Of a stretch of 64,000 bases of DNA, positions 3,058 through 49,987 are shown in pieces. Origin of the DNA: an uncultured Clostridia bacterium (GTDB taxonomy: Bacteria; Bacillota; Clostridia; Oscillospirales; Acutalibacteraceae); contig CANRNQ010000005.1 of NCBI GenBank assembly GCA_947632045.1, positions 27,484-91,483 on the forward strand. Reading direction: 5' to 3'. The notes beneath the pieces were generated by a model. The model was given only the letters and a program-made list of their open reading frames with translations. It searched no databases and was not told the DNA's origin. The position numbers were made by a program, and so were the translations under genes. The first letter of the stretch is position 1. Each line of letters starts with the position of its first letter.

Positions 3058-3240
3058 TCGGGCTCGGGCGGCGACCTGCGCGGCGCAGCCGCGCGGAAAA
3101 ACGCGGCGTAGGGAGCGCTGCATGCATTACATCTCCGCACTAAGCTCCAAGGCGCGCTTCGGATATTCGCCTCCGCCGCGCCGCGTTTTTCGGCAAATTT
3201 CCGCCGGAGGCGGAAATTTGCGGTCGCCGCCCGAGCCCGA
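3058..3240. repeat. Nested inverted-doublet palindromic element, copy 1 (REPIN/MITE-like)
   Basis: 19-bp perfect terminal IR TCGGGCTCGGGCGGCGACC / GGTCGCCGCCCGAGCCCGA; inner IR GAAAAACGCGGCG / CGCCGCGTTTTTC; two internal hairpins. Confidence 0.85.
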
Positions 3241-3395
3241 GCTAAACTCAGCGCCTAACCCTGCGGAAATTGATATACAATCTGTATTTCTTATACATTT
3301 AGTATTATTAAATAAATTTCTTTTTTCGCATAAATATGTTTTCCCACTTTATAAATAAGGTAAAATGTAAAGTAGAAATTTGTTGAGGTGAAAAA

Positions 3396-5804
3396 ATGGC
3401 TTTTTCTAAAGAGGAACTTTTAAAATTCAGAAAAAAAATAATGGAAAACGAAAACGCAGGAATGAACGATATGCAAAAAAAGGCTATCTTCAAGACAAAC
3501 GGTCCCCTGCTCATACTCGCGGGAGCCGGAAGCGGAAAAACCACCGTGCTTGTAAACAGAATAGCGAACCTGATAAGATACGGCGACGCATATAACAGCG
3601 ACTTCATACCCTATGACCTGACAGATGAAGAAATTTCAGAAATAGAGCGCTGTGCAAAAAGCGGGGCAAGCCCCGACGAGGCGCTCGTGCGCAGGCTGTC
3701 GTTCGGCGCGCCGCAGCCGTGGCAGATCCTTGCTATAACCTTTACAAACAAGGCGGCGGGCGAGCTCAAGGACAGGCTGTGCGCTAAAATACCCGAGGGC
3801 GGCGACGACATTTGGGCGGCGACCTTTCACTCTACCTGCTCGAGAATACTCCGCGTTTACGGCGACAGAATAGGCTACACGCACAGCTTCACAATATATG
3901 ACTCGGACGACCAGCGCAGGCTAATAAAGGATTGCATGAAATCTCTGAACATAGACGAAAAGATACTGCCTCACCGCACCGTGCTGAATAAAATATCGCA
4001 CGCGAAGGACAGTATGATCGACTCGGAGGAATACGCAAAGCGGGCTGGCAACGATAATCTTGAAATAACTGTGGCAAGGCTGTATACCCTATATGAGAAA
4101 CAGCTCAAAACCTCGGACGCGATGGATTTTGACGATCTGTTATTCAACACGGTAAAGCTTTTTGAAAAAAATCCCGACGTGCTCGAATACTATCAAAATC
4201 GCTTCAGGTACATAATGGTTGACGAATATCAGGACACGAGCAAGGTTCAATATAAATTCATAAGTATGCTCGCCGAGGCGCGCAAAAACATCTGCGTTGT
4301 GGGCGACGACGATCAAAGCATATATAAATTCCGAGGAGCGACCATAGAGAATATTCTCAGCTTTGAGGTATCATACCCGGACGCGGAGGTGATCCGTCTT
4401 GAGCAGAACTACCGCTCGACTCAGGTAATACTTGACGCTGCGAATAACGTGATAAAAAACAACAGAGAAAGAAAGGGCAAAACTCTCTGGACGGCAAACA
4501 AGGGCGGAAAGAAGATAATACAGCACAAGGCGGCGAACGAGCGCGACGAGGGCAGCTACATAGCTCAAAAAATATGCGAGCTCGTCGGCGAGGGCAGAAA
4601 ATTCTCGGACTTTGCAATACTTTACAGAATGAAGGCGCAGTCGAACTCGATAGAGCAGAGTCTGAGCAGAAACGCCATACCTTATCGTCTGATAGGCGGC
4701 CACCGTTTTTATGAAAGAGAGGAAATAAAGGATATCACGTCGTATCTGAGCTTCATATGTAATCCCTCCGACGACGTAAGGCTCAGGAGGATAATAAACA
4801 AGCCCAAGCGCGGAATAGGCGACTCGACTATAAATCGCGCTGCGGAAATGGCCGGTGCAGTCGGCACAAGCATATACGAAATTATAAGCCACTGCGACGA
4901 ATACACTTCTCTCAGCCGCTCAAGCGGCAAGCTGAAGGAATTTTGCGCACTTGCCGACCGTCTTATAAAGCTTGCCGCGGACAGAAGCCGCAGCATTGAG
5001 GAGATATATCACGCCGTGCTTGAAGCGACCGATTATATAAACTGGCTCAAGGTTGAAAAGGACGATCACGGGGAGAGGATAGAAAACATAAACGAGCTTT
5101 TAACGAGCATAATCAAGTACGAGCAGGATCACCCCGAGGACGGCAGCCTAAGCGGTTTTTTAGAGGAAATATCTCTCTTTACCGATACGGACAATTACGA
5201 CCAAAGCGCCGACTGTGTTGTGCTGATGACCCTGCACGCGGCGAAGGGGCTTGAGTTTCCGATAGTCTTTATCCCCGGCATGGAGGACGGTGTATTTCCG
5301 GGAACGCAGTCGATAATGAGCGAGTCTGAGATGCAGGAGGAACGTCGTCTTGCGTATGTTGGCATAACGCGCGCAAAGGAGGAGTTATATCTCGTAAACG
5401 CGAGGGAAAGAATGTTATTCGGTTCGACTCAACGCAACTGCCCATCAAGATTTTTAAACGAGATACCTGACGAGCTTTTGGAACACACTCAAAGCAGCTT
5501 CGGCGGATTCCCGTTCGGCAGCTCTTCCTTCGGCTCAAATCCGTTTGTCTTCTCGGGCGCTCGCGGCGGCTCCGGCGAAAAAAAGCCCGCCGCCTTTCCG
5601 AAGCCTAATATTCCGAAAAAGAATGTGCCTAACGGTTCCGGTCAAGTGTTCAGGCCCGGCGATAAGGTTAAGCACTCAGCCTTTGGCGAGGGTCTCGTAC
5701 TAAACGCCACTTCTATGGGAAACGATACCTTGCTTGAAATAGCCTTTGACTCCGTAGGCACAAAGGTCATAATGCAAAACTATGCCAAAATCACCAAGCT
5801 CTAA
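3396..5804 (+). CDS. pcrA: ATP-dependent DNA helicase PcrA/UvrD
   Basis: LAGAGSGKT, ITFTNKAA, VDEYQD, VGDDDQSIY, LEQNYRS, MTLHAAKGLEF, EERRLAYVGITRA; C-terminal Tudor-like GDKVKHSAFGEG. Confidence 0.95.
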   Translation: MAFSKEELLKFRKKIMENENAGMNDMQKKAIFKTNGPLLILAGAGSGKTTVLVNRIANLIRYGDAYNSDFIPYDLTDEEISEIERCAKSGASPDEALVRRLSFGAPQPWQILAITFTNKAAGELKDRLCAKIPEGGDDIWAATFHSTCSRILRVYGDRIGYTHSFTIYDSDDQRRLIKDCMKSLNIDEKILPHRTVLNKISHAKDSMIDSEEYAKRAGNDNLEITVARLYTLYEKQLKTSDAMDFDDLLFNTVKLFEKNPDVLEYYQNRFRYIMVDEYQDTSKVQYKFISMLAEARKNICVVGDDDQSIYKFRGATIENILSFEVSYPDAEVIRLEQNYRSTQVILDAANNVIKNNRERKGKTLWTANKGGKKIIQHKAANERDEGSYIAQKICELVGEGRKFSDFAILYRMKAQSNSIEQSLSRNAIPYRLIGGHRFYEREEIKDITSYLSFICNPSDDVRLRRIINKPKRGIGDSTINRAAEMAGAVGTSIYEIISHCDEYTSLSRSSGKLKEFCALADRLIKLAADRSRSIEEIYHAVLEATDYINWLKVEKDDHGERIENINELLTSIIKYEQDHPEDGSLSGFLEEISLFTDTDNYDQSADCVVLMTLHAAKGLEFPIVFIPGMEDGVFPGTQSIMSESEMQEERRLAYVGITRAKEELYLVNARERMLFGSTQRNCPSRFLNEIPDELLEHTQSSFGGFPFGSSSFGSNPFVFSGARGGSGEKKPAAFPKPNIPKKNVPNGSGQVFRPGDKVKHSAFGEGLVLNATSMGNDTLLEIAFDSVGTKVIMQNYAKITKL

Positions 5805-5852
5805 AAATTTTTTGCGGCTGCGGAGTCGCGGCCAAATAATATCTGTCAAAAC

Positions 5853-5896
5853 AAAAGGATTGCAAGGACGGTAAATTCAGTCCTGCAATCCTTTTT
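5853..5896. terminator. Bidirectional intrinsic terminator between pcrA and the convergent dockerin gene
   Basis: AAAAGGATTGCA...TGCAATCCTTTTT inverted repeat with A/T tracts on both sides. Confidence 0.75.
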
Positions 5897-5948
5897 ATTA
5901 TAAATTAAAATATAAAGTCAACAATTTTGTTTTTAACCGCTTTATATG

Positions 5949-8903
5949 TTACCCCGCAATCGGCAGAGTTTCATATCCGCGCCAACCCGCAATATGCCGC
6001 GTAATTATCATTCTATCCTTAGCGTTAACAATTCCGTCGCCGTTAAGATCCGCCGCCGCTTTATTTATCGCTGCATACCCCTGCCAGCCGGCTAAATATC
6101 GAGTAAGCGTCATTCTGTCTTTCGCGTCAACAACCTTGTCGCCGTTTATGTCGCCGGATATATAAGCCGGCTTAGATTCGCTCACTTCGCCACTGTTTTC
6201 ATCAATTTTGATACCGTTGATTTTACCTTCAATATCATTTATATTCTCTTTATCAAAACCGTAATCAACGATTGTGGGAGATTCAATATATCCATCAGCC
6301 TCTATTTTTAATTCATCATCTTCTTTATATAATTGGATATTTCCCGAAGCTGCACCGGTTATTTTGTAAAAGCCTTGATCGATAGGGTTTTGTAATGCTG
6401 CTTCAAACTCATAATTATTACCGCAAATTTGCACATCATTTTCGGTTATTTTTATACCATCTATATTTTCGGATTCTATTTCGTATCCGCCCTGTAAATT
6501 TTCACCAATTATGCCGCAGCCATCTTCTACATTTTCAAATTCAAAATATGAACTTTGGTCTATTGTGATCTTCCAATACAGTTTTTCTTCCGGATCACCT
6601 GATAATACACAATCATACACAGTCATGTTTCCGGTATAATCGTTTCCGTCATATTCCAAAAATTCACCTTTATCATTTATTAATTTGAACTTCTTATCAG
6701 CAGCAATATAAAAATACGTTTTATTGTTTGCTGCACTCAAATAATTAACGACGGATACACTATCCGAGTTGCCACCGTACAACTTATCAATATCGTATAC
6801 CTCTAATTTAGTCCAATAATCCTCTAATACTAATCCATTTGCATCAACAAAAGAAAACGAACTAAAATCCGAAGCAATTTTCATATGCTTATATATTGGA
6901 GTTGAATTGTCTCTGTATACATTTTCATCATAAATTTTAATATCATATCCTGTTTTTTCATTGTAATCATATCCGCAAACAACTACGCTATGACCGCTTT
7001 GATCTTTATTTCCTTTTTTATATTTATATGAAAAAACAAATGGTTTTCGTATTTCCTGAGATCGCCTTGCTTCCTCACATAATTGCTTTAAAAATTTTTT
7101 TAGTCTTTCTTCTTCTGTATTAATATGCCACCCGCCTTTTGATACTGAATAACTCTCATTGCCGTTTGCTGTTAATTGTGTTAATTGATAATATATTATA
7201 ATATCTTTAAATTTTGTTTTATCATTATTATATGGAGATCCCATTTCCCAATAATTGGAGGCCCCTTGATATATAGAATTACAGTCGATTTCCCCTTGGT
7301 TCGCATAACACATACTTAATGCAATTCCGTGGCAAACACCCTTTTCTTTTTCATCATGTAATTCGTTGCATATCATAAATGTATTGCTCCATGTGTTTAA
7401 GCTATCTTTATATAATTTTAATTTATATTTTGAATTAATTACTGTGTACGTCATTCCTTTATGCATAAACCTATTAGTATCTTCACCAATCACAAAATAA
7501 TTATCATCAAAATCGTTTTTATTATCCCACTCGCAAATAAAAATTTTATCATCGTTTTCCGTGCCGTTGCCAAAATTACCATCGTTCCATGTTCCGTCTG
7601 AAAACTTCCAATAGAACATGGCGTAATCTTCATCTCCGTTGCCGTTTTCATTATTCGGCTCAGCCTCATGCCAGTTCGTGTATGCAGTATCTTCACCGCT
7701 TACCCATTCCCAAACTCCCTCATTATCTTTATCAGTAAAGCCAAAGTAAGCGTTATCATATCCGCAGCTTTTCATATATTTAAAAAGAAAATCATTTTCT
7801 TCCTGCGATGAAATAGTTGCCAAATATCCACCCATATTCGAGCAATAAAGCATCGCATCATCCCATGACTGACAAACATCTTTAAATATTTTATAATAAT
7901 GGCCTTTATATTCTATACCTTTTGAAGGATTTACCGGAATTTCTATCGGATAATCCTTGAACTCGGTCGTGATATTATCGCCTTCTACGCCCCAAAGCTT
8001 CGTATCCTCGTCGTACCAAATCGTTACCGTTGTCGACTCATTGTTTGTGTAAAATATTTGGTCATTATTCATTCCGTCCGGATACCATATGACTCCGTCC
8101 ATTGTGATTTTGAACTTATAGCCGTTTACGTCGTTCTTCGGGAGGTTCTCATAAACCTTCTCATAGCGACCTGTAGCCTCGTTATAAATCATAAGGTTGT
8201 TGTCGTCTTCGGGATCAAAGCTTGAACCGCAAAATTCTGACGAACCTGCTACTCTGTATTTATGGCTTACCGATGTGACCGCGGAATCACTCTCCCAATT
8301 AACTTCATGGGTTGTCGGGTTGTAACTTACCTTTACGTCGTCCTGAGCGCTGATGTAACCTATCATGTTATCCTCAGGATATATATCGCCGTTATCCCAC
8401 TTGCCTTCTGTGCAGCTTGATACCTTAAACTGGAATGCAAACGGGTCATACTTGCTTGCGCCCTCGCCAACCTGCTTGAAGGTGATCTCATAAAGGCCTG
8501 TGACGTTGTTCCATGTCATCTTGTTGACCTCAGCGCCTGTTACCCAGTTTTCGCCGTTACAGAGATCTGCTACACCAACTACATACCAAGTTTCGCCCGA
8601 ATCAACAAATCCTGTCAAAGCCTCAGTCTTAGGCTCAGTTTTCTGCTCGGTCGGCAATTCGGTTTGAAGCTCTGTCTCGGGCTCTGTCAGAGGCTCGGTC
8701 GGCAATTCAGTCTGAAGCTCTGTCTCGGGCTCTGTCAGAGGCTCGGTATGCAATTCGGTCTGAGGTGCTGTCAGTGGGTTACCGAGCACGACTTCGATGT
8801 TCTCACCGTTTACGCTCGCATTCAGCGCAGAGGCTGAAAATACGCTAAACATCATCATTAATGACATTAACAATGCCATTAGCTTTCTAATTGTTTTTTT
8901 CAT
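5949..8903 (-). CDS. Large secreted modular protein: TEP repeats, two carbohydrate-binding-like (X25/CBM-type) modules, C-type lectin domain, putative papain-like Cys-His-Asp domain, C-terminal dockerin
   Basis: Start MKKTIRKL at 8903 with GGAGG SD; CTL motifs SWDDAMLYC..GGYLATISSQEEN, WHEAEPNN, WND, FICEW; GVCHG..GHSVVVCG..IYDEN; duplicated GDINGD/ADLNGDG dockerin loops. Confidence 0.8.
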   Translation of the reverse strand: MKKTIRKLMALLMSLMMMFSVFSASALNASVNGENIEVVLGNPLTAPQTELHTEPLTEPETELQTELPTEPLTEPETELQTELPTEQKTEPKTEALTGFVDSGETWYVVGVADLCNGENWVTGAEVNKMTWNNVTGLYEITFKQVGEGASKYDPFAFQFKVSSCTEGKWDNGDIYPEDNMIGYISAQDDVKVSYNPTTHEVNWESDSAVTSVSHKYRVAGSSEFCGSSFDPEDDNNLMIYNEATGRYEKVYENLPKNDVNGYKFKITMDGVIWYPDGMNNDQIFYTNNESTTVTIWYDEDTKLWGVEGDNITTEFKDYPIEIPVNPSKGIEYKGHYYKIFKDVCQSWDDAMLYCSNMGGYLATISSQEENDFLFKYMKSCGYDNAYFGFTDKDNEGVWEWVSGEDTAYTNWHEAEPNNENGNGDEDYAMFYWKFSDGTWNDGNFGNGTENDDKIFICEWDNKNDFDDNYFVIGEDTNRFMHKGMTYTVINSKYKLKLYKDSLNTWSNTFMICNELHDEKEKGVCHGIALSMCYANQGEIDCNSIYQGASNYWEMGSPYNNDKTKFKDIIIYYQLTQLTANGNESYSVSKGGWHINTEEERLKKFLKQLCEEARRSQEIRKPFVFSYKYKKGNKDQSGHSVVVCGYDYNEKTGYDIKIYDENVYRDNSTPIYKHMKIASDFSSFSFVDANGLVLEDYWTKLEVYDIDKLYGGNSDSVSVVNYLSAANNKTYFYIAADKKFKLINDKGEFLEYDGNDYTGNMTVYDCVLSGDPEEKLYWKITIDQSSYFEFENVEDGCGIIGENLQGGYEIESENIDGIKITENDVQICGNNYEFEAALQNPIDQGFYKITGAASGNIQLYKEDDELKIEADGYIESPTIVDYGFDKENINDIEGKINGIKIDENSGEVSESKPAYISGDINGDKVVDAKDRMTLTRYLAGWQGYAAINKAAADLNGDGIVNAKDRMIITRHIAGWRGYETLPIAG
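8625..8765 (-). repeat. Intragenic 48-bp tandem repeat encoding TEPLTEPETELQTELP
   Basis: About 2.5 copies visible in DNA and protein. Confidence 0.85.
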
Positions 8904-9104
8904 AGATTCTACCTCCTGTATATACAAGAACTATCATTGCTCTTGTATATCTTATGTTTTTAGTGGTATCTATAAATAAATATAGTACCGATTTTCAATA
9001 ATGTCAACATTTATAATGCTGTTATTTGGATTTTTTTACACAATATACGCCATACTCTTAAAATACACGCAATTTACTTGTTTGAGGCAGTCTCGTGATT
9101 GCCT

Positions 9105-10052
9105 CTATTTTTTCACATTTTCCTTATCTTCCTCTCCGTCCTCGTCCTCATTCTTATCCTCGTCTGCGTCTTTTGCCTTTTCGGCGCTCGCGGCAATCTT
9201 CATCTCGCCGCGCTTTTTGCCGAAGGCGTATATCGCCGCCGCCAAGCAAACCACACATATCGCGGCGACAAATCCGCATATGAACAGCGTGTTATTAGAC
9301 TGTGTATCGCTCGCAGAGCCAAGGCTCACGGCTTCGCCGGATTCGATAAGCGCCGAATGTGTGCCGTAGGAGTCATCGGAACCGGAAGCCGACTTTGACG
9401 ATTTCGACGACTTGCTTGAGCTTTTGCTCGACGATGATTTATCCTTAGAGCCTGATTTCGATGAGCTGCTCGACGAGGGCTTTTTGATTTCCTCTGCGCT
9501 CGCCTGTCCGACCTCGCCCGATATTTTCTCCTGAAGCTCCACCGTGTACTCAAAGCCGTAATCGCACGAAAGCCGCTTTTCATCGGTGCTCGCCGCCTGT
9601 TCTCCGTAAAGGCTCAAAAATGCTGTGCAAGGATTATCAAGAGCTTTGAATTTAACCTCGATTATTTCGCTGTCGCCTGCGGACGATATTCCCCTCGTGT
9701 TTAAATATACTATTTTTAAATTTCCGTTTTCGCAGTATTCCTCAATTTGACCGGCAGCACCCTCGCAAAGCGACACGGACGAAAACTCCATGACCGATGA
9801 ATCAAAGCAAAGCGTAAATATCATCGCCGCCAGGCGGCTGCCGCCGGAAACGGCTATTTTCGTCTTAAAGCTCTTGCCCGTCTGCACCCTGTTGTCCACG
9901 TGCAGCGAATAGCCTACATCTGCGGCAAGGCAATTTATTACGGAAAACAACATCAGAATGACCGCCGCCGCGAGCGCAGTCGCCCTCTTAAAATATAAAC
10001 GCCGTATATGGCGACTTTGCTTTATAATTTCTTTTAGGCATTGTTCTTTCAT
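9105..10052 (-). CDS. Membrane-anchored cohesin-like domain protein with Ser/Lys-rich linker and C-terminal TM helix
   Basis: Signal peptide; GKSFKTKIAV..LAAMIFTLCFDSSVMEFSSV..GNLKIVY..IIEVKFKAL cohesin-type beta-sandwich pattern; poly-Ser linker; TM helix then charged tail. Confidence 0.65.
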   Translation of the reverse strand: MKEQCLKEIIKQSRHIRRLYFKRATALAAAVILMLFSVINCLAADVGYSLHVDNRVQTGKSFKTKIAVSGGSRLAAMIFTLCFDSSVMEFSSVSLCEGAAGQIEEYCENGNLKIVYLNTRGISSAGDSEIIEVKFKALDNPCTAFLSLYGEQAASTDEKRLSCDYGFEYTVELQEKISGEVGQASAEEIKKPSSSSSSKSGSKDKSSSSKSSSKSSKSSKSASGSDDSYGTHSALIESGEAVSLGSASDTQSNNTLFICGFVAAICVVCLAAAIYAFGKKRGEMKIAASAEKAKDADEDKNEDEDGEEDKENVKK

Positions 10053-10195
10053 ATCTCACCCTCCCGCCTTTTTAATTTGATATTTGATATTTCATAATTG
10101 CCATAATTTTATTATATAAAACAAAACGCCGATTTCAATACCAAAGCATTAAAATCGACGGATTATTATTGAATAAATTACCGATCGGCTGCGCA

Positions 10196-10675
10196 TTACT
10201 CCGCTGCGGGCAGACCGAGCTCGGCAAGCTCCGCACGGAGGCGGCTCTTCATCTCCTTAAGCTCCGCAGAAGTCGGGCGGTTATCATCGGCGTACATCTT
10301 TTCCATCGGATACCACCAGACGGGGCCCTTGCCGTTGTTGCCGTAATTTTCGATGTCCCCCGTCCTGCGCGGATAGAGATGCCAGTGCAGGTGCGCATCG
10401 CCCATACCCAAAAGCTCATAGTTCATCTTCTCCGCTCCAAAGGCCCGACTTGTCGCCTGAGCCACAAGTACCATCTCCTCCATGAATTTCGCCCGCTCCT
10501 CCGGCTCGAGGTCAAAAAGCTCCGTTTTTCCCTCGTGGCGCTTATATAAAAACAGCGTGTACCCAAAAAAGTGCTGGTTGTCGCCCAAAACTACATAGCC
10601 CGTCTTTAGCTCCGCCACAAAATACGGGTTCGTTCCCGCCTTGATTTGTTCGATTCTGTCGCAAATTAAGCACAT
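10196..10675 (-). CDS. HIT family hydrolase
   Basis: MCLIC N-terminus and HLHWH histidine-triad motif. Confidence 0.9.
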   Translation of the reverse strand: MCLICDRIEQIKAGTNPYFVAELKTGYVVLGDNQHFFGYTLFLYKRHEGKTELFDLEPEERAKFMEEMVLVAQATSRAFGAEKMNYELLGMGDAHLHWHLYPRRTGDIENYGNNGKGPVWWYPMEKMYADDNRPTSAELKEMKSRLRAELAELGLPAAE

Positions 10676-10686
10676 ATTTTATCCTC

Positions 10687-10842
10687 CTATTTGAGCTTTG
10701 ACCTGCTGACGATGACTCGTAATGTTTCCTGTTTGCACTTCGAACAGCAGAGTGGATAGTTTTTGAGAACGGTATTCTCTCTAAGCCTGTCACAGATCTT
10801 TACCCTGCAATCAGAGCGGCGTATCCATTCAGTTGTTTCCAT
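10687..10842 (-). pseudogene. Degenerate cysteine-rich KTR domain protein (conjugative-transposon accessory gene remnant)
   Basis: Hand translation METTEWIRRSDCRVKICDRLRENTVLKNYPLCCSKCKQETL.. resembles EWxxCPxCxNKTRxxIREDTxLKNFPLxCPKCKQETL, with the first CPxC and KTR decayed. Confidence 0.65.
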
Positions 10843-10868
10843 AGGTATATCCTATATACTTCTTGCGA

Positions 10869-12008: not shown

Positions 12009-12012
12009 ACCA

Positions 12013-12705: not shown

Positions 12706-12717
12706 GCTGTTTTGCTC

Positions 12718-14528: not shown

Positions 14529-14561
14529 TTTTAATCTCCTTGTGCGGTATTTACACGATTG

Positions 14562-15137: not shown

Positions 15138-15156
15138 GGTCTATCCTCTCACAATC

Positions 15157-15216: not shown

Positions 15217-15270
15217 GAGAAACAGCGGAAGTTCCTGAAAAGTTTGTTTTCCGGACATATAGGCAAAATT

Positions 15271-15313: not shown

Positions 15314-15388
15314 GTGTTTGACACTTTGCGGATAGGGTATTCTGCTCGATAAATGAAGCCTTATCCCGGCTCCGCAAAAAATCCCCGA

Positions 15389-28202: not shown

Positions 28203-28290
28203 GCCGGTGTGGTGGAATAGGCAGACACAAGGGACTTAAAATCCCTCGGACGAATAATCCGTACCGGTTCAAGTCCGGTCACCGGCACCA
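28203..28290 (+). tRNA. tRNA-Leu (anticodon TAA)
   Basis: GCCGGTG acceptor stem, loop CTTAAAA, long variable arm, GGTTCAAGTCC, CCA; terminator hairpin follows. Confidence 0.95.
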
Positions 28291-38258: not shown

Positions 38259-38348
38259 TGTAAAATACCTCCGATTATAATTATCCGATAAAGGCGGCCT
38301 TAAGCCACACCTGAGCGGTGGTTTTGGACGCCGTTTATTTGTAAGGTA

Positions 38349-38398
38349 ATTATACCTTATGCGGGTATAAAAATCAACAAACTTAGAACATCTTTTCG
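38349..38398 (-). promoter_or_regulatory. recA sigma-A promoter with adjacent LexA (Cheo) box
   Basis: TTGATT-17-TATAAT; CGAAAAGATGTTCT at 38385-38398 resembles CGAAC-N4-GTTC. Confidence 0.7.
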
Positions 38399-38432
38399 TT
38401 CTTAAGCAAGTTAAGAACGGTTTATCGGACAG

Positions 38433-40243: not shown

Positions 40244-40352
40244 ATTCTTTTCCTTCCCTAAAATATTTTAAATATAGGCGACCGTCGAAGGACGGTTTCC
40301 CTATGGCTTTGCGAAGGTCTTAACGGGACGGCCGAGCGCTCTGCGCGCATAC

Positions 40353-40536
40353 GGGGCGGCGACCAGGCGCGGCCGCAGGCCGCGCCGGAAAAAACGCGGC
40401 GGCGGGGCGAGTTTCACATTTGGCCCATTGCCTTATCAATCCTTTGCGCGCTGCCCTAAATTTATCGAGCCCCGGGGTCCGCCGCGTTTTTTGGGCAAAT
40501 TCCCGCCGCAGGCGGGAATTTGCAGGTCGCCGCCCC
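40353..40536. repeat. Nested inverted-doublet palindromic element, copy 2
   Basis: GGGGCGGCGACC / GGTCGCCGCCCC ends; AAAAAACGCGGCGG / CCGCCGCGTTTTTT inner IR; two GCA-loop hairpins. Confidence 0.85.
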
Positions 40537-40611
40537 AAGCTCAGCCTCCCGCTCAAAGCCCGAGGGAAACAAAAGCCTCGTCGCCGAACTCGGCCGTCCC
40601 CCCTCGCTTTC

Positions 40612-42069: not shown

Positions 42070-42101
42070 TGCATCTCCCCCTCTCGCAATTTTAATAGTC
42101 C

Positions 42102-42833
42102 TTACTTTCCGCTTCTCTTGTTTTCAGCGTCCCATTTATAGCCAAGCCCCCACACTGTAACTATATATTTCGGGTTGCTCGGCTCGTCCTCTATCTTCAT
42201 TCTCAGCCTGCGTATATTAACGTCCACGATTTTTTCCTCGCCGACATAAGCCTCGCCCCAGACGTGGTTAAGAATATCGGTTCTGTCAAGAGCAACGCCC
42301 GGATTTGAGAAGAAGTATTCCATTATCTGAAATTCGACCTGAGTAAGCTCTATCATCTTGCCGTTTTTGAGTAGAGCGCGGTTGCGCAAATTCAATATGA
42401 AGTCGCCCGACTCAAGCTCCTCCTTGTAGCTCGCCTTATTTCTCTCCTGCGCGAGCATCACTCGGCGATGGAGAGAGTCCACCCTTGCGACAAGCTCCGA
42501 CGGGCTGAACGGCTTTGTGACATAGTCGTCGGCGCCGAGCATCAGCCCCGTTACCTTGTCCATTTCCTGAGTTTTCGCCGTAAGCATTATTATTCCTATG
42601 CCTCCGTTGCGGCTGCGAAGCTCCTTGCATACGGTAAAGCCGTCTATTCCGGGCATCATTATATCAAGAATGGCAACGTCGAAATCCCCGTTGTGCTCCT
42701 CGTATTTTTTCAGCGCCTCCTCGCCGCAGTCCGCCTCGACTACGCTGTAGCCCGCTCTCGTTAGATTTATAACTACAAAATCGCGAATGACCGCCTCGTC
42801 CTCACATACAAGTATCTTTTTCATTTGACCCAT
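42102..42833 (-). CDS. OmpR-family response regulator
   Basis: LDIMMP, GADDYVTKPF, IVTVWGLGY. Confidence 0.95.
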   Translation of the reverse strand: MGQMKKILVCEDEAVIRDFVVINLTRAGYSVVEADCGEEALKKYEEHNGDFDVAILDIMMPGIDGFTVCKELRSRNGGIGIIMLTAKTQEMDKVTGLMLGADDYVTKPFSPSELVARVDSLHRRVMLAQERNKASYKEELESGDFILNLRNRALLKNGKMIELTQVEFQIMEYFFSNPGVALDRTDILNHVWGEAYVGEEKIVDVNIRRLRMKIEDEPSNPKYIVTVWGLGYKWDAENKRSGK

Positions 42834-42857
42834 CCTCTCATATCACATGGCAAAAAA

Positions 42858-44264
42858 TTATTTATTATTTATCATCACAAAATAATCGGGTATCTTGTTC
42901 AGCGACATCGCTATACCCTTTGTGTTTTTTGTTTCGGCGGGGATATTCACCGCGTAAACGCTCTCGCCGTAATCGCCTATCTCTATATAATCCTTGCTCT
43001 GCGACGCCGTCCACTCCTGCGCCGTAAACACCTGGATAGTCAAAAGCCTGTCGCCAAGGCTGCCGCTTGGAGCCGAGCCGTCTGCGTCGTCGCTATCTTC
43101 GTCCTGCTTCTGCTCGTTCCACATATAAAACGTAATTGCGTTTCCAAGCCGAGATCCTCTCGCCGTAGTCCTGTCCTTCCATTCCGCCGGAATAATGAAG
43201 TAATAGCCAAGCTGCATATCCGTCACCGTTTCAAGTATGGGCGACAGCTCCCCTTTTTCCGGATCAAAGTGGTTCCAGGTCGTCTGAAAAGCCACAAGGT
43301 TAACGTTTTCGGCTGCATTGTGCGGCATAAGCGCCATCGTAGGTATCTCTATCAATCCGTCCGAATTAATGTCGGCGCACAAATTATCAAAGGAGCTTCT
43401 AATCGACGGATTATTCGCCATGCTGCTCATCTGGGTGTTAAGCGGATTTGCGAGGCTCGCCTTTTTCTTGTCCCAATATATAAACTGTGTTTCGCTCTGG
43501 TTGTTTACATTGATAGTGTCGGCGAAAACTCCCGCCTGATCCTTGGTCGCCCTGCCAAAGCTCAGATTGAGGTAGACGTTGGCGTAATTGCTCATAGCGA
43601 CCGAGGAGCGGGTGAATATCGTGTTTGTTTCGCTGTTGTACTGGAGCATCTTTGCGTTTGCGTCGGCGTTTTGATCGACGACCGAAAAAATCATTATGCT
43701 GTTTTTACCCTCGCCCGTCATATCCGCTATCAGAAATTGATTGAACGTGTCCTCCACCTTTAGCTCTGCCGTAGTCTTTTTGCCCACGACATAGGCGCCG
43801 AGGGTACACAAATTGCCCGAGCCGTTGTTCCAGCTTACAACCACCTCGTTTGTGCCGTCGCCTGTTATATCGCCTATCTCTACCTTATCCACCTCGCTGC
43901 TGCGACTTGTATAATCGCCCATATCTCTCCAATCGCCGGAGAAATTCTTTATCAAAAGTATATGCGCCGTTTCCTTGTTGCCCGAAGGCTTGTAAAAGAC
44001 TATCGCTTCCTCCGTTTTGTCGCCGTCGAGGTCCTCGTATATTATTGCGGAGCGGTAGCTTCCGTTTTGCGGATATTTCAGCGTGTAGTCGCCGCCCGCC
44101 TTATGCTCGATAATGCTCTGTATCTTCGCCTTGTCGCCCGTCGTCTTTGGCGGACGCAGCAGGTTCGAGTTGTCAAAGCCGCTCGAGGTACAGCCCGTAA
44201 GCATCAGCAGAGCAAGCGACAAGACAGCCGCAAGCGCTCTCAGCCTTTTATTGATCTTTTTCAT
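42858..44264 (-). CDS. Lipoprotein with DxDGD (FG-GAP/VCBS-like) repeats, co-oriented with the two-component system
   Basis: LTGC lipobox; DLDGD, DITGDG, DINSDG repeats. Confidence 0.75.
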   Translation of the reverse strand: MKKINKRLRALAAVLSLALLMLTGCTSSGFDNSNLLRPPKTTGDKAKIQSIIEHKAGGDYTLKYPQNGSYRSAIIYEDLDGDKTEEAIVFYKPSGNKETAHILLIKNFSGDWRDMGDYTSRSSEVDKVEIGDITGDGTNEVVVSWNNGSGNLCTLGAYVVGKKTTAELKVEDTFNQFLIADMTGEGKNSIMIFSVVDQNADANAKMLQYNSETNTIFTRSSVAMSNYANVYLNLSFGRATKDQAGVFADTINVNNQSETQFIYWDKKKASLANPLNTQMSSMANNPSIRSSFDNLCADINSDGLIEIPTMALMPHNAAENVNLVAFQTTWNHFDPEKGELSPILETVTDMQLGYYFIIPAEWKDRTTARGSRLGNAITFYMWNEQKQDEDSDDADGSAPSGSLGDRLLTIQVFTAQEWTASQSKDYIEIGDYGESVYAVNIPAETKNTKGIAMSLNKIPDYFVMINNK

Positions 44265-44329
44265 ATATCCGCCCCCTTTCCGGCAGCGCTTTATAACCTT
44301 TGCAGCGCCGCTTATAGCCGTCTTTTGAT

Positions 44330-45007
44330 TTACCTTTTATTTCTTGCGAAGCAGCAGTAGGTCGGTCTGCCCATTTCAGTAAACATCTTCTCATGCTCCG
44401 TCATATAATTCACAAAGCCGTCCGGCAGTCTGTCCTCCGGCTCGCCGTGCAGATCCTCGGACTTAAAAAATATTTCATAGCCGCAGAGGTCAAAGTACTC
44501 AAGACTCTCCCTGAAAAGCTCCTCGTCGTCCGTTTTAAAGCGTATCTCGCCGCCGTCGATTAGAAACTCCTTATACATATTCAGCTTTCGCGGAAATGTC
44601 AGTCTGCGCTTTTTGTGTTTTTCCCTTGGCCATGGATTGCAGAAGTTTATGTATATTCTCTCCACTCTGTCCTCCGGCCTCAGCACCCTGTCTATCTGCT
44701 CGACATTGTACGCCGCGAGTATCACGTTGTCCGCCTCTCGCCCCTTATCCTCAAACTGCTTTACTATCGTGCGCCTGGCCACTCCGAGCATATCGCTCTT
44801 TATATCTATCGCAAGGAAGTTTATATCGGGATTGTCGAACGCGCACTGTGCGACGAAGCTGCCCTTTCCGCAGCCCAGCTCAACATGGAGCGGCTGTTCC
44901 CTTTTAAATTCTCTTTTCCATTTTCCCGCGCTCGCCTCGGGCGATTTCGAATAAAATTCGCACCTGTCAAGCTCCGGCTGAGCCCATTTCTTTTTTCTTA
45001 TCCTCAT
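44330..45007 (-). CDS. trmB: tRNA (guanine-N7)-methyltransferase
   Basis: ELGCGKG, NFCNPWP..KH.KRRL, FKTD, TEHE. Confidence 0.93.
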   Translation of the reverse strand: MRIRKKKWAQPELDRCEFYSKSPEASAGKWKREFKREQPLHVELGCGKGSFVAQCAFDNPDINFLAIDIKSDMLGVARRTIVKQFEDKGREADNVILAAYNVEQIDRVLRPEDRVERIYINFCNPWPREKHKKRRLTFPRKLNMYKEFLIDGGEIRFKTDDEELFRESLEYFDLCGYEIFFKSEDLHGEPEDRLPDGFVNYMTEHEKMFTEMGRPTYCCFARNKR

Positions 45008-45259
45008 TCATTCCACCGTTTGCTTTTATCGCGCGTCGCTTTGCACCGGATAGTCGGCGCGTCGGCTATGCGCTCAGAACTTTAAATCACTTTATTATAT
45101 CAAAATATTTATGATATTTCAACGTGAGAAGAAATAATTAACAAATATTTTTAATTGTTGCCCTCGTCGAAGTTTTTTCATCTGAGCAAAGCAAACTGTA
45201 ACACATTTGCCGCCTGTAAATATAATGATAATGTAACCAACGAAAGGAGGAAAACGACA

Positions 45260-45379
45260 ATGTGTGGATTTGGCAATAACTGCTGCTCATGGATAATTCT
45301 TCTTGTTATTCTCTTCAGCTGCTGCGGTAACAACGGCGTAAGCGAAGCATCTAACAACGGTTGCGGCTGCGGCTGCTAA
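45260..45379 (+). CDS. Small Cys/Gly-rich membrane peptide (39 aa), probably spore-associated
   Basis: Strong SD AAAGGAGG; MCGFGNNCCSWIILLVILFSCCGNNGVSEASNNGCGCGC; own terminator. Confidence 0.75.
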   Translation: MCGFGNNCCSWIILLVILFSCCGNNGVSEASNNGCGCGC

Positions 45380-45392
45380 TAAAGCGGCCAAC

Positions 45393-45435
45393 AAAGGCGG
45401 CGGAGGGCTTTCCTCCGCCGCCTGCTTTATTTTTG
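45393..45435 (+). terminator. Terminator after the Cys-rich peptide gene
   Basis: AGGCGGCGGAGG-GCTTT-CCTCCGCCGCCT then a T-rich run. Confidence 0.75.
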
Positions 45436-45454
45436 GGCTGCGCCCTAAGACTGC

Positions 45455-46260
45455 TTTTGGGCTGCGCCCTAAAACTGCCGCTCGTTAACCGCAGCCATGC
45501 CGACTTGCGCCGTCACGGCTGCTACTTAAAATTATAGTTTATTTAGGGGGAGCTGGTGCTCCCCCTAAGACCCCCACCTTCCGCTCAAAGTATTGTTTTT
45601 GATTTTAACTATTTGCACCGCTTTAATGCTCCTCTCACTCACTCAAAGGTTTATTTTTAATTTAACTGTTTTCTCCGCTTTCTGCGACGGAATTAATTTA
45701 TTTTTGGCTTGCGCCCTAAAACTGCCGCTCGTTGACCGCAGCCACGCCGACTTGCGCCGTCACGGCTGCTACTTAAAATTATAGTTTATTTAGGGGGAGC
45801 TGGTGCTCCCCCTAAGACCCCCACCTTCCGCTCAAAGTATTGTTTTTGATTTTAACTATTTGCACCGCTTTAATGCTCCTCTCACTCACTCAAAGGTTTA
45901 TTTTTAATTTAACTGTTTTCTCCGCTTTCTGCGACGGAATTAATTTATTTTTGGCTTGCGCCCTAAAACTGCCGCTCGTTGACCGCAGCCACGCCGACTT
46001 GCGCCGTCACGGCTGCTACTTAAAATTATAGTTTATTTAGGGGGAGCTGGTGCTCCCCCTAAGACCCCCACCTTCCGCTCAAAGTATTGTTTTTGATTTT
46101 AACTATTTGCACCGCTTTAATGCTCCTCTCACTCACTCAAAGGTTTATTTTTGATTTAACTATTTGCGCCGCTTTAATGCTTCGCTTGCTTGCTAAAAAG
46201 TTTATTTTTTTGATTTGACTGTTTGCGCCGTTCACAATCTCCCGACTCTCTCAAAGGATT
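45455..46260. repeat. 247-bp tandem repeat (about 2.8 copies) with trailing ~57-bp degenerate sub-repeats
   Basis: GCGCCCTAAAACTGCCG recurs at 45464, 45711 and 45958; near-identical units to about 46152. Confidence 0.92.
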
Positions 46261-46521
46261 TTAGCAGCAGGGAGCGGAGATAAAAACAAATACTTGAGAG
46301 GGCGAGGGGGCAACGGGGGAGTGGATCTCCCCCGCATTATATCTAATATTAAGGCAGCAGCTTTACCGGCGGGGGTCGGCAAAGCTGCGGTCGGCGAGCC
46401 GCCAAAATAAAAACACCGCTTCGAGCTCTTGCGGTGCGGCTCCAAAAATGCAATAATATTATCAAGTCATATACGGACAAGCAACAAAAAGCCTTATCGA
46501 AGGCAAGGAGGCGGCAGCATA

Positions 46522-47019
46522 ATGGAAGTACATAACATTGACCCGGTGTGGGATAAAAATTCAAAAATACTTATATTGGGCTCGTTCCCATCGGTGAAAT
46601 CGAGGGAGGTTAAATTCTTTTACGGTCACCCGCAAAACAGATTTTGGCGAGTGCTGTCGAGTCTGACAGGCTCTCCAATTTCCGAAAGCACAGACGACAA
46701 AAAAAGACTTCTCCTTGATAACCGCATAGCCCTTTGGGACGTGATTTCAAGCTGCGAGATAACAGGCTCGAGCGACAGCTCGATCAAAAACGCCGTTCCG
46801 AACGACCTTACCCCTATTATACGCGGCAGCGATATAAAGCAGGTATTCACAAACGGGGGAACAGCCGACAGGCTGTATAAAAAATACTGCCTCGACAGTG
46901 TAAAAATACCGTCGCTAAAGCTCCCCTCGACAAGCCCCGCGAACGCTGCATACAGCCTTGAACGGCTTAAAGACGAGTGGAAAATTATCCTCTCCTTCAT
47001 CGGACAAAAGCCCGAATAA
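46522..47019 (+). CDS. DNA-deoxyinosine (hypoxanthine) glycosylase, UDG superfamily
   Basis: LILGSFPS..S, YGHPQNRFW, LWDV, LPSTSPAN. Confidence 0.88.
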   Translation: MEVHNIDPVWDKNSKILILGSFPSVKSREVKFFYGHPQNRFWRVLSSLTGSPISESTDDKKRLLLDNRIALWDVISSCEITGSSDSSIKNAVPNDLTPIIRGSDIKQVFTNGGTADRLYKKYCLDSVKIPSLKLPSTSPANAAYSLERLKDEWKIILSFIGQKPE

Positions 47020-47136
47020 GTGCCGCCGCAACCGCAGGTTGCGGGCACTGGAAGCTAGAATATATAGCGCGCATTTTGCCCGAATGATATAATTAGCGTA
47101 CAAAGCAAATCAAACCATATGCCCCGGGAGGATAAA

Positions 47137-47889
47137 ATGAATATTGAAACCGCGAATAAATTATTGCGATACAGAAAAATGCACTCTCTGTCGCAGGAAC
47201 AGCTTGCTGAAAAAATAGGAGTCAGTCGACAGGCAGTATCGAAATGGGAGAGGGCTGAAGCGTCGCCCGACACCGACAATCTTATTCTTTTGGCTAAAAT
47301 CTACGGAATAACTATAGACGAGCTCATTACCGGCAGTGAAAAAGCTAACAACGACGATATATCCGCTTCCGCCGGCAATACGGACGATGCGGGCAAACAA
47401 TCAAGCGGCAATGGCGCTTATATAAGCACAGGCATATCCTCCGGCGGTTCAAGGCTCAGCGCGGACAAGGGCGATATGCCTCTTGACGAAAACGTCGGGC
47501 AAGAAGTCCACGCCGATGAGTCCGTTCATACTTCCAACGGCGATAAACTAAGCCGCAAGAGGGGAAATAAAAAAAGCCTGTGGTACAGCCTTCCGTACCC
47601 GATATTCGCCCTTATTATCTTTCTCCTGTGGGGCTTTTTCGGCTTTGCCGGCGGTTTTTACCGCGCTTGGCTCATTTTTTTGACCGTACCGCTTTATTAC
47701 ACCTTGGCGGAGGCAATAATAAAAAGAAAGCCGAGCAAATTCTGTTACCCCGTTTTGGCTGTAATATTCTTTTTCGTTTGGGGATTCTGGGGAGGCTCTG
47801 TCGGCGGATTTTCCATATCCTGGATATTTTTCCTCACAATACCGATTTATTACTGCATATGCTCGGCACTCGAGGGTAACGCAAAATGA
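47137..47889 (+). CDS. XRE-family HTH regulator with C-terminal TM segments
   Basis: LSQEQLAEKIGVSRQAVSKWE; duplicated hydrophobic YP..W..FLT.P.YY hairpins. Confidence 0.85.
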   Translation: MNIETANKLLRYRKMHSLSQEQLAEKIGVSRQAVSKWERAEASPDTDNLILLAKIYGITIDELITGSEKANNDDISASAGNTDDAGKQSSGNGAYISTGISSGGSRLSADKGDMPLDENVGQEVHADESVHTSNGDKLSRKRGNKKSLWYSLPYPIFALIIFLLWGFFGFAGGFYRAWLIFLTVPLYYTLAEAIIKRKPSKFCYPVLAVIFFFVWGFWGGSVGGFSISWIFFLTIPIYYCICSALEGNAK

Positions 47890-48001
47890 CCTGCCGGAGC
47901 AATTTTTCTCCCCGAAGGGAAACTAAGTCCCTTTGACAAATGCCCGCAGCCGCGCCGCCTTGCAGCGCGACCGCAGGTATAGGAACAGCCCTTCGCTATT
48001 T

Positions 48002-48646
48002 TTATCCTCTGCTCTTGAAGTCCTTCTCGATTTTCTCGCTCCATCCGACCGGTATATTTGCAGACTTCCTTACGTTGTACACAGCCTCCGACACCGTATT
48101 GAACACTACGGCTGTACCCTCTCCATCGGCGCGGTAATTGACAGCGCGATTCGCCCCTATTCCAAAGCCCTTTGCAGTTTCCACGGAGTCGATATTCGCC
48201 CCGATAAAGAGGAACTCCCAGCCGTATTTCTCCTTTTGCCTTTCTATCATCCTTTTGACCTCGTCACTGCTGAAAATATGGCTCGAATTTTCAAGCCCGT
48301 CGGTCATTATTACGAATACCGTGTGCTCCGGCACATCCTCCGCCCTTGCGTACTTGTGTATGTTGGCTATGTGCTTTACAGCCCCGCCGATAGCGTCTAT
48401 CAGGGCCGTACTGCCGCGCACAACGTAATCCTTCGAAGTCATTTCTTCGATTTTTTCAAGTCTTACGCGGTCGTGCAGTACTATGCTCTCATGATCGAAA
48501 AGTATTGTCGACACATAACACTCGCCGTCCTGACTCCTCTGCTTTTTGATGAGCGAATTAAATCCGCCAATCGTGTCGCCCTCAAGCCCCGACATTGAAC
48601 CGCTTCTGTCCAAAATGAATACTAACTCCGTGATGTTGTTTTTCAT
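48002..48646 (-). CDS. vWA domain protein
   Basis: FILDRSGSM MIDAS, TALIDA, MTDG.EN.S. Confidence 0.9.
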   Translation of the reverse strand: MKNNITELVFILDRSGSMSGLEGDTIGGFNSLIKKQRSQDGECYVSTILFDHESIVLHDRVRLEKIEEMTSKDYVVRGSTALIDAIGGAVKHIANIHKYARAEDVPEHTVFVIMTDGLENSSHIFSSDEVKRMIERQKEKYGWEFLFIGANIDSVETAKGFGIGANRAVNYRADGEGTAVVFNTVSEAVYNVRKSANIPVGWSEKIEKDFKSRG

Positions 48647-48747
48647 ACATATTACCTCCTGAAAATAAAATGTGATCGCAGGCTTTTTTACCCTACGATC
48701 ACATTTTACATTTATTATAATTTATTTGGTCGCCTGAGAGGCGACAT

Positions 48748-49776
48748 TTACGCCCCGAGCAGGGGTTGGTCAAAGGCAAACAGCGCCTCGTTTATCTCAA
48801 AGACATTGTAATTCTCGTTCGTTATGAAGTATTCGATTATTATGTCGAATCTGCTGCTGTGCGACAGCGCAAAGCCCGCCTTCATAAGCATATCCTTCGC
48901 CTCCCCAAGCGGAAGCTCAAGGGCTATTGCAAAGGCTATCGCCGTCTGCTTGCTCGGTCTGTAAAGACGGTCGCCGCGTATTTTTGAGAACAGCTTGCGG
49001 TCGATGTTCGCCTTCTTGTAGCACTGAGCATCGGTCATTCCCTTTTCGTCTATCTTTCTCAGCAGCATTTCGGAAAAGCTCTCGTCCGTCTGCTTCAGCG
49101 CCTCCTCCAGCGAGAGCGCCTTTGTCGGCTTGGCCGGTCTGCGGAGCTGCGCGAGATTTGCCGCAGCAGGATATAAAATCTGGGTTTCGCCCAAGACCGC
49201 GCTTTCTCCGCTTTCGCCTCTGCCGGAAAATCTAAACTTGAAATTTGCATCGACATATTTATCGTCTATAAACGACGAGATATCCGCAAAGAGCTTTTCG
49301 CTTATGCGAAATGAGGATCTGTCAAACACGACTATATAAACGAGCATATCGTGCTCCGTCAGGAACTCCGTTATGCTGTCCACCGCAACTCTCAGCGCCT
49401 GCTCCTTAGGGTAGCCGTAAACGCCGGAGGAGATGAGCGGAAACGCGAGAGTTTCGCAGCCGTGCTCCAGTGCCGTCGTCAGGGAGTTTCTGTAACAGCT
49501 TTTAAGCAGCGCTTCTTCGTTGTTTTGTCCTCCGCGCCACACGGGGCCTACCGTATGGATAACATATTTGCACGGCAGATCGTAGGCTCCCGTCAGCTTT
49601 GCCTCTCCCGTTTTACAGCCTCCCAAAGTGCGGCATTCCTCGAGCAGTCCCGACCCCGCCGCCTCGTGAATGGCTCCGTCTACGCCTCCGCCGCCGAGCA
49701 GCGTGGGGTTCGCGGCGTTCACTATCGCGTCGCATTTCATTTTTGTTATATCGTTTCGCACGATTTGAACAGGCAT
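48748..49776 (-). CDS. Macrodomain (O-acetyl-ADP-ribose deacetylase-like) protein fused to a C-terminal HTH-like domain
   Basis: DIT, AIVNAAN..LLGGGGVDGAIH, VIHTVGP, FPLISSGVYGYP; C-terminal YKKANIDRKLFSKI..PSKQTAIAFAIAL. Confidence 0.88.
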   Translation of the reverse strand: MPVQIVRNDITKMKCDAIVNAANPTLLGGGGVDGAIHEAAGSGLLEECRTLGGCKTGEAKLTGAYDLPCKYVIHTVGPVWRGGQNNEEALLKSCYRNSLTTALEHGCETLAFPLISSGVYGYPKEQALRVAVDSITEFLTEHDMLVYIVVFDRSSFRISEKLFADISSFIDDKYVDANFKFRFSGRGESGESAVLGETQILYPAAANLAQLRRPAKPTKALSLEEALKQTDESFSEMLLRKIDEKGMTDAQCYKKANIDRKLFSKIRGDRLYRPSKQTAIAFAIALELPLGEAKDMLMKAGFALSHSSRFDIIIEYFITNENYNVFEINEALFAFDQPLLGA

Positions 49777-49841
49777 TGTAATTCCTCCTGAGAGTCGGGC
49801 TGCCGCGCGGCCCGTTTTTATTTTGTGCTTTGACAAAGCTC

Positions 49842-49987
49842 GTTCGGGCGGCGACCGCTTCGCTCCGCCCTGCGGGCGGAGCGAAGCAAAAAACGCGGCG
49901 GGAGGCTCCCCCGTAACAGAGGAAGGGCTCTGCCCTGCCGCGTTTTTTCGCCCGCGCCCGCGGGCGCGGGCGGGTCGCCGCCCGAAC
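49842..49987. repeat. Nested inverted-doublet palindromic element, copy 3 (opposite orientation)
   Basis: 15-bp IR GTTCGGGCGGCGACC / GGTCGCCGCCCGAAC; AAAAAACGCGGC / GCCGCGTTTTTT; two hairpins. Confidence 0.85.

Follow-up and report, generated by a model that had tools for sequence, protein, structure and literature searches.

A stretch of 64,000 nucleotides from an uncultured Clostridia bacterium (contig CANRNQ010000005.1, positions 27,484 to 91,483; hereafter, the window) contains, between its genes, three copies of a nested inverted repeat, which raises the question of what kind of element this is and what maintains it. An earlier note on this DNA had placed the copies at 3058-3240, 40353-40536 and 49842-49987, with two hairpins, each flanked by conserved blocks, on either side of a variable spacer, and our reading of the sequence agrees with both the coordinates and the order of the blocks. 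The same note considered the copies to be active, non-autonomous single-stranded DNA (ssDNA) transposons similar to REPINs, which are doublets of repetitive extragenic palindromic (REP) sequences, mobilized in trans by an HUH Y1 transposase of the RAYT/IS200 type encoded elsewhere. As discussed below, this explanation appears unlikely. The analysis makes it reasonably probable that the copies belong to a family of nested DNA palindromes, non-coding and confined to one lineage, of the REP and MITE (miniature inverted-repeat transposable element) type with a cloverleaf core, which was amplified long ago and is now static, and in which the junction is still constrained at each locus.

In the window, the motif GGGCGGCGACC (with at most one mismatch) occurs 11 times, compared to 1.4 expected occurrences, and AAAAACGCGGC occurs 14 times, compared to 4.2 expected; neither count was reached in any of the shuffles. 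The genome to which the window belongs (G000) is a fragmented assembly of 2.235 Mb in 57 contigs, 87% complete and with 47.8% G+C. Across this genome, GGGCGGCGACC, which is the core of a stem denoted P1, is present 126 + 129 times (255), including 112 exact inverted pairs that are spaced by 88–182 nt, with a mode at 130–139 nt. When at most one mismatch per arm is allowed, there are 152 elements, about one per 15 kb; the unpaired P1 motifs are mostly one-mismatch copies, plus a few chance matches in genes and copies at contig ends. The half-site pattern is found 60 + 65 times, and not once when read backwards. Because unmasked GC-rich repeats yield spurious open reading frames (ORFs) of 83–163 aa, the gene context was assessed after masking these ORFs; every copy is then intergenic. 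The genome search for paired motif blocks that the earlier note had proposed thus confirms a dispersed intergenic family with the inverted-doublet build (conserved block, hairpin, conserved block); the three copies are real, but they are part of a family of about 150, not of three.

A complete element is a non-coding palindrome of 230–275 nt. Its closing stem, P1, consists of the near-invariant 11-bp motif GGGCGGCGACC, usually extended by a few variable complementary pairs, and encloses three arms: two hairpins with triloops, one short and one long (stems typically of 7 and 13 bp, respectively), and, between these, the stem P3. In P3, an A-run followed by CGCGGCGG pairs with the complement and a T-run (A5CGCGGCGG). 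The variable loop of P3, which is the spacer of the earlier note, comes in two length classes, 34–44 nt (about 36 nt) and, in a minority of the copies, 71–80 nt, whereas minimal copies have a compact P3 hairpin. Outside P1, loosely paired outer arms retain a weak consensus, and 48 nt (46–51) away from P1 begins a terminal stem, designated P0, with the consensus GGGCTGYCGCG. P0 comprises at least 8 bp in 64% of the copies, compared to 17% in a control in which the left and right flanks of different copies were paired (swapped partners), and no sequence information is left one or two bases beyond this stem. Thus, the cores were delineated correctly in the earlier note, but the true elements are larger, with the extra terminal stem about 48 nt outside each GGGCGGCGACC block. 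With this stem included, the window copies span 3010-3270, 40325-40600 and 49799-50030. The polarity of an element is given by the order of the long and short hairpins, with the short-hairpin-first strand as the reference. For copy 1, this is the plus strand, which also carries the GNA loops and scores 104.9 bits with the covariance model of the family (R1), versus 44 bits for the minus strand. Copy 3 is inverted, as previously recognized from its TGC loop, with the long hairpin first, and scores 104.4 bits on the minus strand versus 82.6 bits on the plus strand. The parts of the three copies are as follows.

3010..3270, plus strand: copy 1, whole element (DNA fold −96.7 kcal/mol, z −8.0; in the centroid, 3010-3017 pairs with 3263-3270)
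3010..3017, plus strand: copy 1, 5' arm of the terminal stem P0, partner 3263-3270 (fold centroid and P0 statistics of the family)
3059..3076, plus strand: copy 1, 5' arm of the closing stem P1 including GGGCGGCGACC, partner 3222-3239
3078..3094, plus strand: copy 1, short hairpin, 7-bp stem, GCA triloop with a C-G closing pair
3096..3108, plus strand: copy 1, 5' arm of the inner stem P3 with the A-run, partner 3179-3191
3109..3178, plus strand: copy 1, variable P3 loop of the long class, 70 nt
3193..3221, plus strand: copy 1, long hairpin, 13-bp stem, GGA triloop
40325..40600, plus strand: copy 2, whole element (DNA fold −92.2 kcal/mol, z −6.1)
40325-40336 with 40589-40600, plus strand: copy 2, P0, sequence different but complementarity kept
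40353..40364, plus strand: copy 2, 5' arm of P1, partner 40525-40536
40366..40386, plus strand: copy 2, short hairpin, 9-bp stem, GCA loop
40389..40402, plus strand: copy 2, 5' arm of P3, partner 40479-40492, with a 76-nt loop between them (40403-40478)
40495..40523, plus strand: copy 2, long hairpin, 13-bp stem, GCA loop, with a compensated change from T-A to C-G relative to copy 1
49799..50030, minus strand: copy 3, entire element, polarity reversed (DNA fold −96 kcal/mol, z −8.6)
49799-49807 with 50022-50030: copy 3, P0 (from the fold)
49843..49856, plus strand: copy 3, P1 arm, partner 49973-49986
49857..49887, plus strand: copy 3, long-type hairpin, TGC loop on the plus strand and GCA on the minus strand
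49888..49948, plus strand: copy 3, P3 stem and variable loop (49888-49901 with 49934-49948; loop of 32 nt)
49949..49972, plus strand: copy 3, short-type hairpin, GC-rich (from the fold)

All three copies fold as a closing stem with three arms, with z values from −6.1 to −8.6 relative to shuffles. Among 88 oriented copies folded with ViennaRNA, 65 adopt exactly the shape of one closing stem with three hairpins and another 20 have one additional small hairpin, in support of the four-way junction proposed previously. The compensatory change between the pairs TTTCCGCC/GGCGGAAA and TTCCCGCC/GGCGGGAA, on which that proposal had drawn, proved genuine when the copies were re-read. In an alignment of 44 copies from G000 and its sister species (A1), with the structure projected from single-sequence folds, 94.6% of the cells are paired, and 21 of the 50 pairs show changes on both sides. 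Double changes account for 159 cells versus 39 in shuffles, and the controls with slid partners collapse. The conservation of structure described in the earlier note is thus supported.

Strong covariation and a conserved multi-helix junction are also what would be expected of structured RNA genes or cis-regulatory RNAs (of the small RNA, ribozyme or guide-scaffold type), in which case the variable P3 loop, a unique segment of 34–44 nt within a constant scaffold, would be the specificity segment. The pattern of the changes, however, does not fit. The substitutions in A1 are nearly all from one Watson-Crick pair to another, with only rare G-U intermediates, and the few mismatches show no G-T versus A-C asymmetry between the strands. 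Element polarity is unrelated to the direction of the neighboring genes, and no conserved promoter or terminator consensus was found in the arms. Loops and central segments occur in flipped orientation; specifically, the central loop, which has a weak consensus of its own and shares only short motifs among paralogues, is oriented 42:38 relative to the hairpin order, that is, either way. Beyond the short family motifs, the variable loops match nothing elsewhere in the genome, nor in the GenBank phage and PLSDB plasmid collections; captured or CRISPR-like spacers were rejected on these grounds. The Rfam query proposed in the earlier note yielded no family at threshold, and even in a permissive search, the best sub-threshold matches were generic hairpin models far below the cut-offs. 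(The only matches in the window at gathering thresholds are two tRNA genes, at 28203-28287 on the plus strand and 60361-60434 on the minus strand.) An RNA function of this kind is thus very unlikely. Taken together, the intergenic location, random polarity, lack of a promoter or terminator consensus and of an Rfam match, and covariation restricted to Watson-Crick pairs argue, at the level of sequence, for a DNA palindrome rather than an RNA gene. Given such pairing, both strands would be able to fold.

How old is the family, and is it still moving? Exact copies were found in G000 and in only one congener among 41 relatives, the sister species G002, which has 255 half-sites and a similar copy number. 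Among the matches listed for species-representative genomes, the sister metagenome-assembled genome is the only true one; two single matches in Clostridia are chance matches inside genes, and the other singles come from unrelated GC-rich genomes and, although not inspected, are presumed to be due to chance. No true match (and one chance match) was obtained among JGI metagenome contigs, none in the GenBank phage and PLSDB plasmid collections, and an R1 search of 40 other genera of the bacterial family returned nothing. Within the genus, R1 detected about 10 diverged copies in G007 and, in G006, a single weak one; these keep the four-way architecture, with P1 and P3 changed in a complementary manner; in some diverged congener copies, a compact P3 hairpin replaces the long loop. 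Hence, the blocks described as invariant in the earlier note are so within the G000/G002 expansion but covary in a congener. One of the G007 copies is orthologous to the G000 copy at C3:96237, so that the family predates the split between G000 and G007, two genomes with about 76% identity in DNA. No element is present in the spacers that correspond by orthology to those of window copy 1 (in G003 and G005) or copy 2 (in G007; 131 nt there versus 363 nt in G000). The G003 spacer orthologous to copy 1 contains, at about 3250-3330 on the minus strand of the compared locus (L132, contig C11), a different, AT-richer imperfect palindrome, which may represent a separate repeat family of that species.

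The presence or absence of elements was compared, as the earlier note had suggested, for the 23 G002 elements with both flanks mapping to a single G000 contig. Both species have the element at 20 of these 23 sites. Two more are deletion derivatives in G000, one reduced to a left-arm remnant and the other lacking P3 and one hairpin. The copy at G000:C12:26514-26566 is a minimal derivative in which P1 closes a single hairpin; as the orthologous G002 locus (L104) contains the complete element, an internal deletion removed P3 and one hairpin here and left P1 intact. The comparison thus produced a single presence/absence candidate, filled in G002 only, and even this is not a clean insertion. Near-identical paralogues are also missing: apart from one probable assembly duplicate (C28/C57), the loops of paralogous copies are all unlike. 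These observations do not support the present mobility assumed previously, and it is quite improbable that copying is still active. The original amplification likely did proceed by transposition-like copying. The family can be called mobile only on account of the number of its copies, their dispersal between genes and their confinement to one lineage.

The absence of a transposase from the window, noted earlier, extends to the whole of G000, in which searches for Y1, TnpB and IS110 gave no intact match. As for a mobilizer acting in trans, a Y1/RAYT/IS200-type tnpA flanked by the motif, none was found in G000, which is 87% complete. The only PF01797 (Y1) match in G002 is an ordinary, AT-rich IS200 with its own hairpins and without a family motif within 1.5 kb, and PF01797 matches also occur in element-free congeners, so that the presence of Y1 does not track the elements. 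(At this G002 locus, L127 on contig C138, the gene for the 172-aa IS200-type Y1 adjoins a DUF772 transposase fragment and a fragment of a type I restriction specificity subunit, with features at 1417-1935, 1932-2321 and 2570-3124, in AT-rich DNA that differs from the remainder of the genome.) Y1, TnpB and IS110 were all rejected as partners because their distribution among congeners with and without elements does not match that of the elements. Moreover, the GTAG or CGTC tag (defined in PMC3733652), or its complement, is missing from the conserved blocks, and polarity is unbiased with respect to the local leading strand, as deduced from GC skew and from the strand bias of genes.

Some features do speak for REPIN-like elements mobilized by a RAYT. 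The family shares with REPINs the inverted doublet with conserved blocks beside hairpins, the variable spacer, unique in every copy as in Pseudomonas (PMC3337134), and the lack of a target duplication; among 72 copies and at offsets of 0–4, no direct repeat of at least 3 bp exceeded the swapped-partner control. G000 is, furthermore, only 87% complete. The triloops show the one-strand bias to C(GNA)G described in the earlier note: on the short-hairpin-first strand, the long hairpin has GNA in 47 copies and TNC in 5, and the short hairpin has GNA in 54 and TNC in 22. In DNA, d(GNA) loops with a C-G closing pair show unusual stability (PMC3201870). The loops, however, flip often between orthologues (in 5 of 42 hairpins), so that selection and retained ancestry are inseparable as causes of the bias. 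With both species sharing most sites and neither a tag nor a Y1 that follows the elements, an active RAYT-mobilized family is unlikely; the REPIN analogy holds for the architecture but not for RAYT membership or present mobility.

Several points also weigh against the reading that we favor, a transposition-like amplification that has ceased. G000 is incomplete (87%) and fragmented, and the repeats themselves break contigs; copies lie at contig ends at C2:157735 and C12:27. It is in this 87% complete genome that the PF01797 profile had no match; PF07282 (TnpB) detected a mere 50-aa scrap, and PF01548 (IS110) had no match in any element-bearing genome. There is no empty site with mappable boundaries, the G003, G005 and G007 spacers being too diverged to align, and at the single presence/absence candidate among the 23 sites, about 115 additional nt differ. 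A variable position in P0 (T or C) is concordant between the arms, about 230 nt apart, in 72 of 72 copies, but no orthologue pair switches its state, and therefore, the agreement could stem from two founder subfamilies instead of from compensation that occurred repeatedly. Finally, the elements were ascertained by the P1 motif, so that the invariance of P1 among paralogues is partly circular. The comparison of orthologues and the filter-free R1 search of the window are free of this circularity.

The filter-free search of the 64-kb window returned only the three intact copies and no decayed ones. (The R1 matches at 45358-45491, within what had earlier been described as a tandem array of non-coding units of about 247 bp at window positions 45358-46260, are at noise level, with E values of 0.44-0.5, and the array is accordingly placed outside the cloverleaf family.) In the 21 parsed orthologous pairs from G000 and G002, mismatches amount to 8.6% in the flanks, 14–16% in the outer arms, 13% in the central loop (plus 20% gaps) and 6.4% in the hairpins, but only 0.65% in P1 and 0.7% in P3, so that, at these loci, the conservation of the two junction stems exceeds that of the flanks about tenfold. 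In the hairpin stems, about 11 compensated pairs were counted by hand, versus about 5 uncompensated changes. Several of the compensated pairs lie next to each other in patches of multiple bases, which switch between alleles that are also encountered in other members of the family. In 3-4 pairs, the central loops are unrelated despite orthologous hairpins and flanks, and no spacer inversion was seen in the 21 pairs. An internal change of another kind is present 16.5 kb upstream of the window start, at G000:C5:10866-11031, where one P3 arm and half of the adjacent hairpin form a 28-nt tandem duplication that is missing from the G002 orthologue (L046).

The compensated patches and loop flips are what palindrome mutational dynamics alone would produce if template switching kept the arms identical without selection on any copy. 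Template switching is an established mechanism of arm-against-arm correction in quasipalindromes (PMC7202029), and such correction can explain the perfect stems, the patch-wise compensated changes and the loop flips. Correction, however, maintains complementarity and not sequence, and yet P1 and P3 differ by about 0.7% compared to 8.6% in the flanks; the two stems are near-identical over about 150 old paralogues, whereas the outer arms retain only a weak consensus and the loops only short motifs, and the window has no decayed copies. A fixed P1 and P3 sequence at about 150 old loci therefore requires either selection at each locus or a homogenizing enzyme, and mutational dynamics acting alone is highly improbable. 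As read from the alignments, the constraint appears to be three-layered, on sequence in the junction stems, on shape in the hairpins, and on neither in the loops and arms.

What function might such selection preserve? One candidate is a host-domesticated role at transcript ends, with P3, within a very stable fold, serving as a terminator, insulator or 3'-end stabilizer in either orientation, as has been suggested for REP/BIME and BOX-type repeats. In its sequence, P3 has the form of a bidirectional terminator, minimal copies retain a compact P3 hairpin, the Watson-Crick-only pairing lets both strands fold, and P1 and P3 are the parts conserved at orthologous loci. The location of the elements points in the same direction: they start at a median of 33 nt past the upstream stop codon, and the median distances from the core to the genes are 82 nt for stops and 154 nt for starts. 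Nevertheless, in most copies, the P3 loop is 34–80 nt long, outside the form of intrinsic terminators. A terminator scan left P3 as a whole unflagged and, in copy 3, flagged on the minus strand a small hairpin in the P3 loop followed by the P3 arm with the T-run. Among the 110 exact-P1 elements with called genes on both sides, 18 lie between divergent genes, about the rate of the other intergenic classes; indeed, the four classes are occupied roughly according to their frequencies (5.2% of co-directional, 7.4% of convergent and 6.7% of divergent spacers). Furthermore, genes followed by an element do not more often lack a terminator-like hairpin of their own than other genes (18% versus 23%, a weak test). 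Altogether, a role at transcript ends is rather unlikely as the full explanation of the family. (A 700-nt spacer outside the window, G000:C21:31874-32583, is full of short GC-rich hairpins of another kind, which apparently form a second dispersed family unrelated to the first; the orthologous G007 position is occupied by a cloverleaf copy instead.)

REP-type repeats are well studied in Proteobacteria but far less so in Firmicutes. Comparison with the REP/BIME/REPIN repeats of Pseudomonas and Enterobacteria (PMC3116915, PMC3337134, PMC2817692) reveals more than 100 intergenic copies in two orientations without a target duplication in both cases, as well as A/T runs that suggest co-option at transcript ends. 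The REPIN, like the cloverleaf element, is composed of two short palindromes with conserved flanks, arranged as an inverted doublet around a spacer unique in every copy, folds as a whole into a long hairpin, and is inherited vertically over long periods (PMC3337134). In contrast to REPINs, the cloverleaf family has no associated RAYT or Y1 gene and no GTAG/CGTC tag, and membership among the REPINs and RAYTs fails for these reasons. Its unit is about three times longer, with an extra terminal stem, its hairpins branch off a four-way junction rather than lying within one linear hairpin, and its host is a gut Clostridia lineage. The features of IS200/IS605-derived elements, be they of the PATE type or scaffolds of TnpB guide RNAs, are not found either: instead of TnpA and TnpB sharing ends with the repeats and a replication-strand polarity, there is the TnpB scrap and no strand bias.

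Those MITE-like repeats for which transposition is known produce target duplications, such as TTTAT in the case of bcr1 and TA in the case of Correia. The cloverleaf family, unlike these two, shows no such duplication, and thus, it cannot be assigned to the DDE-type MITEs even though it has terminal inverted repeats in the form of P0. Like those of bcr1 of the Bacillus cereus group, ERIC/IRU, Correia and BOX/RUP (PMC3184786, PMC2229807), the cloverleaf repeats are small, intergenic and non-coding, are specific to a lineage and have terminal inverted repeats and predicted stable folds; compensatory changes have been reported for some of these other families. For none of them, however, has a single closing stem with three hairpins been described. 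A branched repeat with a four-way junction, one stem and three hairpins was not found described in the literature searched. Thus, the cloverleaf family is a new structural form of the known REP/MITE-type bacterial repeats.

A more distant comparison is with parvoviruses. The inverted terminal repeat (ITR) of the adeno-associated virus (AAV), which is cut by the HUH protein Rep, has a closing stem with two small internal palindromes at the junction. It exists as 'flip' and 'flop' isomers in which the orientation of the inner palindromes is reversed with respect to the outer stem, and it is recognized by both stem sequence and folded shape. The cloverleaf element likewise has a closing stem carrying inner palindromes at a junction, and inverted inner parts. 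Unlike the ITR, which is three-way, T-shaped and located at the ends of a linear viral genome, it is four-way and present in about 150 copies inside a bacterial chromosome, with no Rep-like gene found. By analogy, its duplication-free ends and apparent dependence on folded shape resemble single-strand HUH systems, although none of these enzymes could be linked to the cloverleaf family.

The history that we consider most plausible would then begin with an amplification in the common ancestor of the two sister species; a low-copy relative is older still. The copy mechanism would leave no duplication and probably recognized a folded single strand or an extruded cruciform around the P1/P3 junction. 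Copying would have essentially stopped, with the copying enzyme possibly lost or unassembled. Later, the stems would stay perfect partly by arm-against-arm correction through template switching, while P1 and P3 would be under purifying selection at each locus, most likely because a host factor binds the junction or because P3, with its A-run, GC-stem and T-run, acts as a transcript-end insulator in either orientation. A bolder version is conceivable, although well short of likely: the repeats may be an undescribed class of DNA elements, with the P1 (GGGCGGCGACC) and P3 (A5CGCGGCGG) stems as sites for a structure- and sequence-specific protein, either a new transposition or recombination enzyme that leaves no duplications and shuffles or flips arms, or a chromosome-organizing factor; each of the approximately 150 loci would then be kept by selection and would not be junk.

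In practical terms, the cloverleaf repeats break the assemblies of this lineage and create spurious ORFs of 80-160 aa. For the biology of the family, about 150 independent copies, together with an orthologous set in the sister species, constitute a natural experiment that separates the three layers of constraint. The family thereby makes two questions testable, namely, whether palindromes are kept by selection or by correction of one arm against the other, and whether a protein reads a DNA junction.

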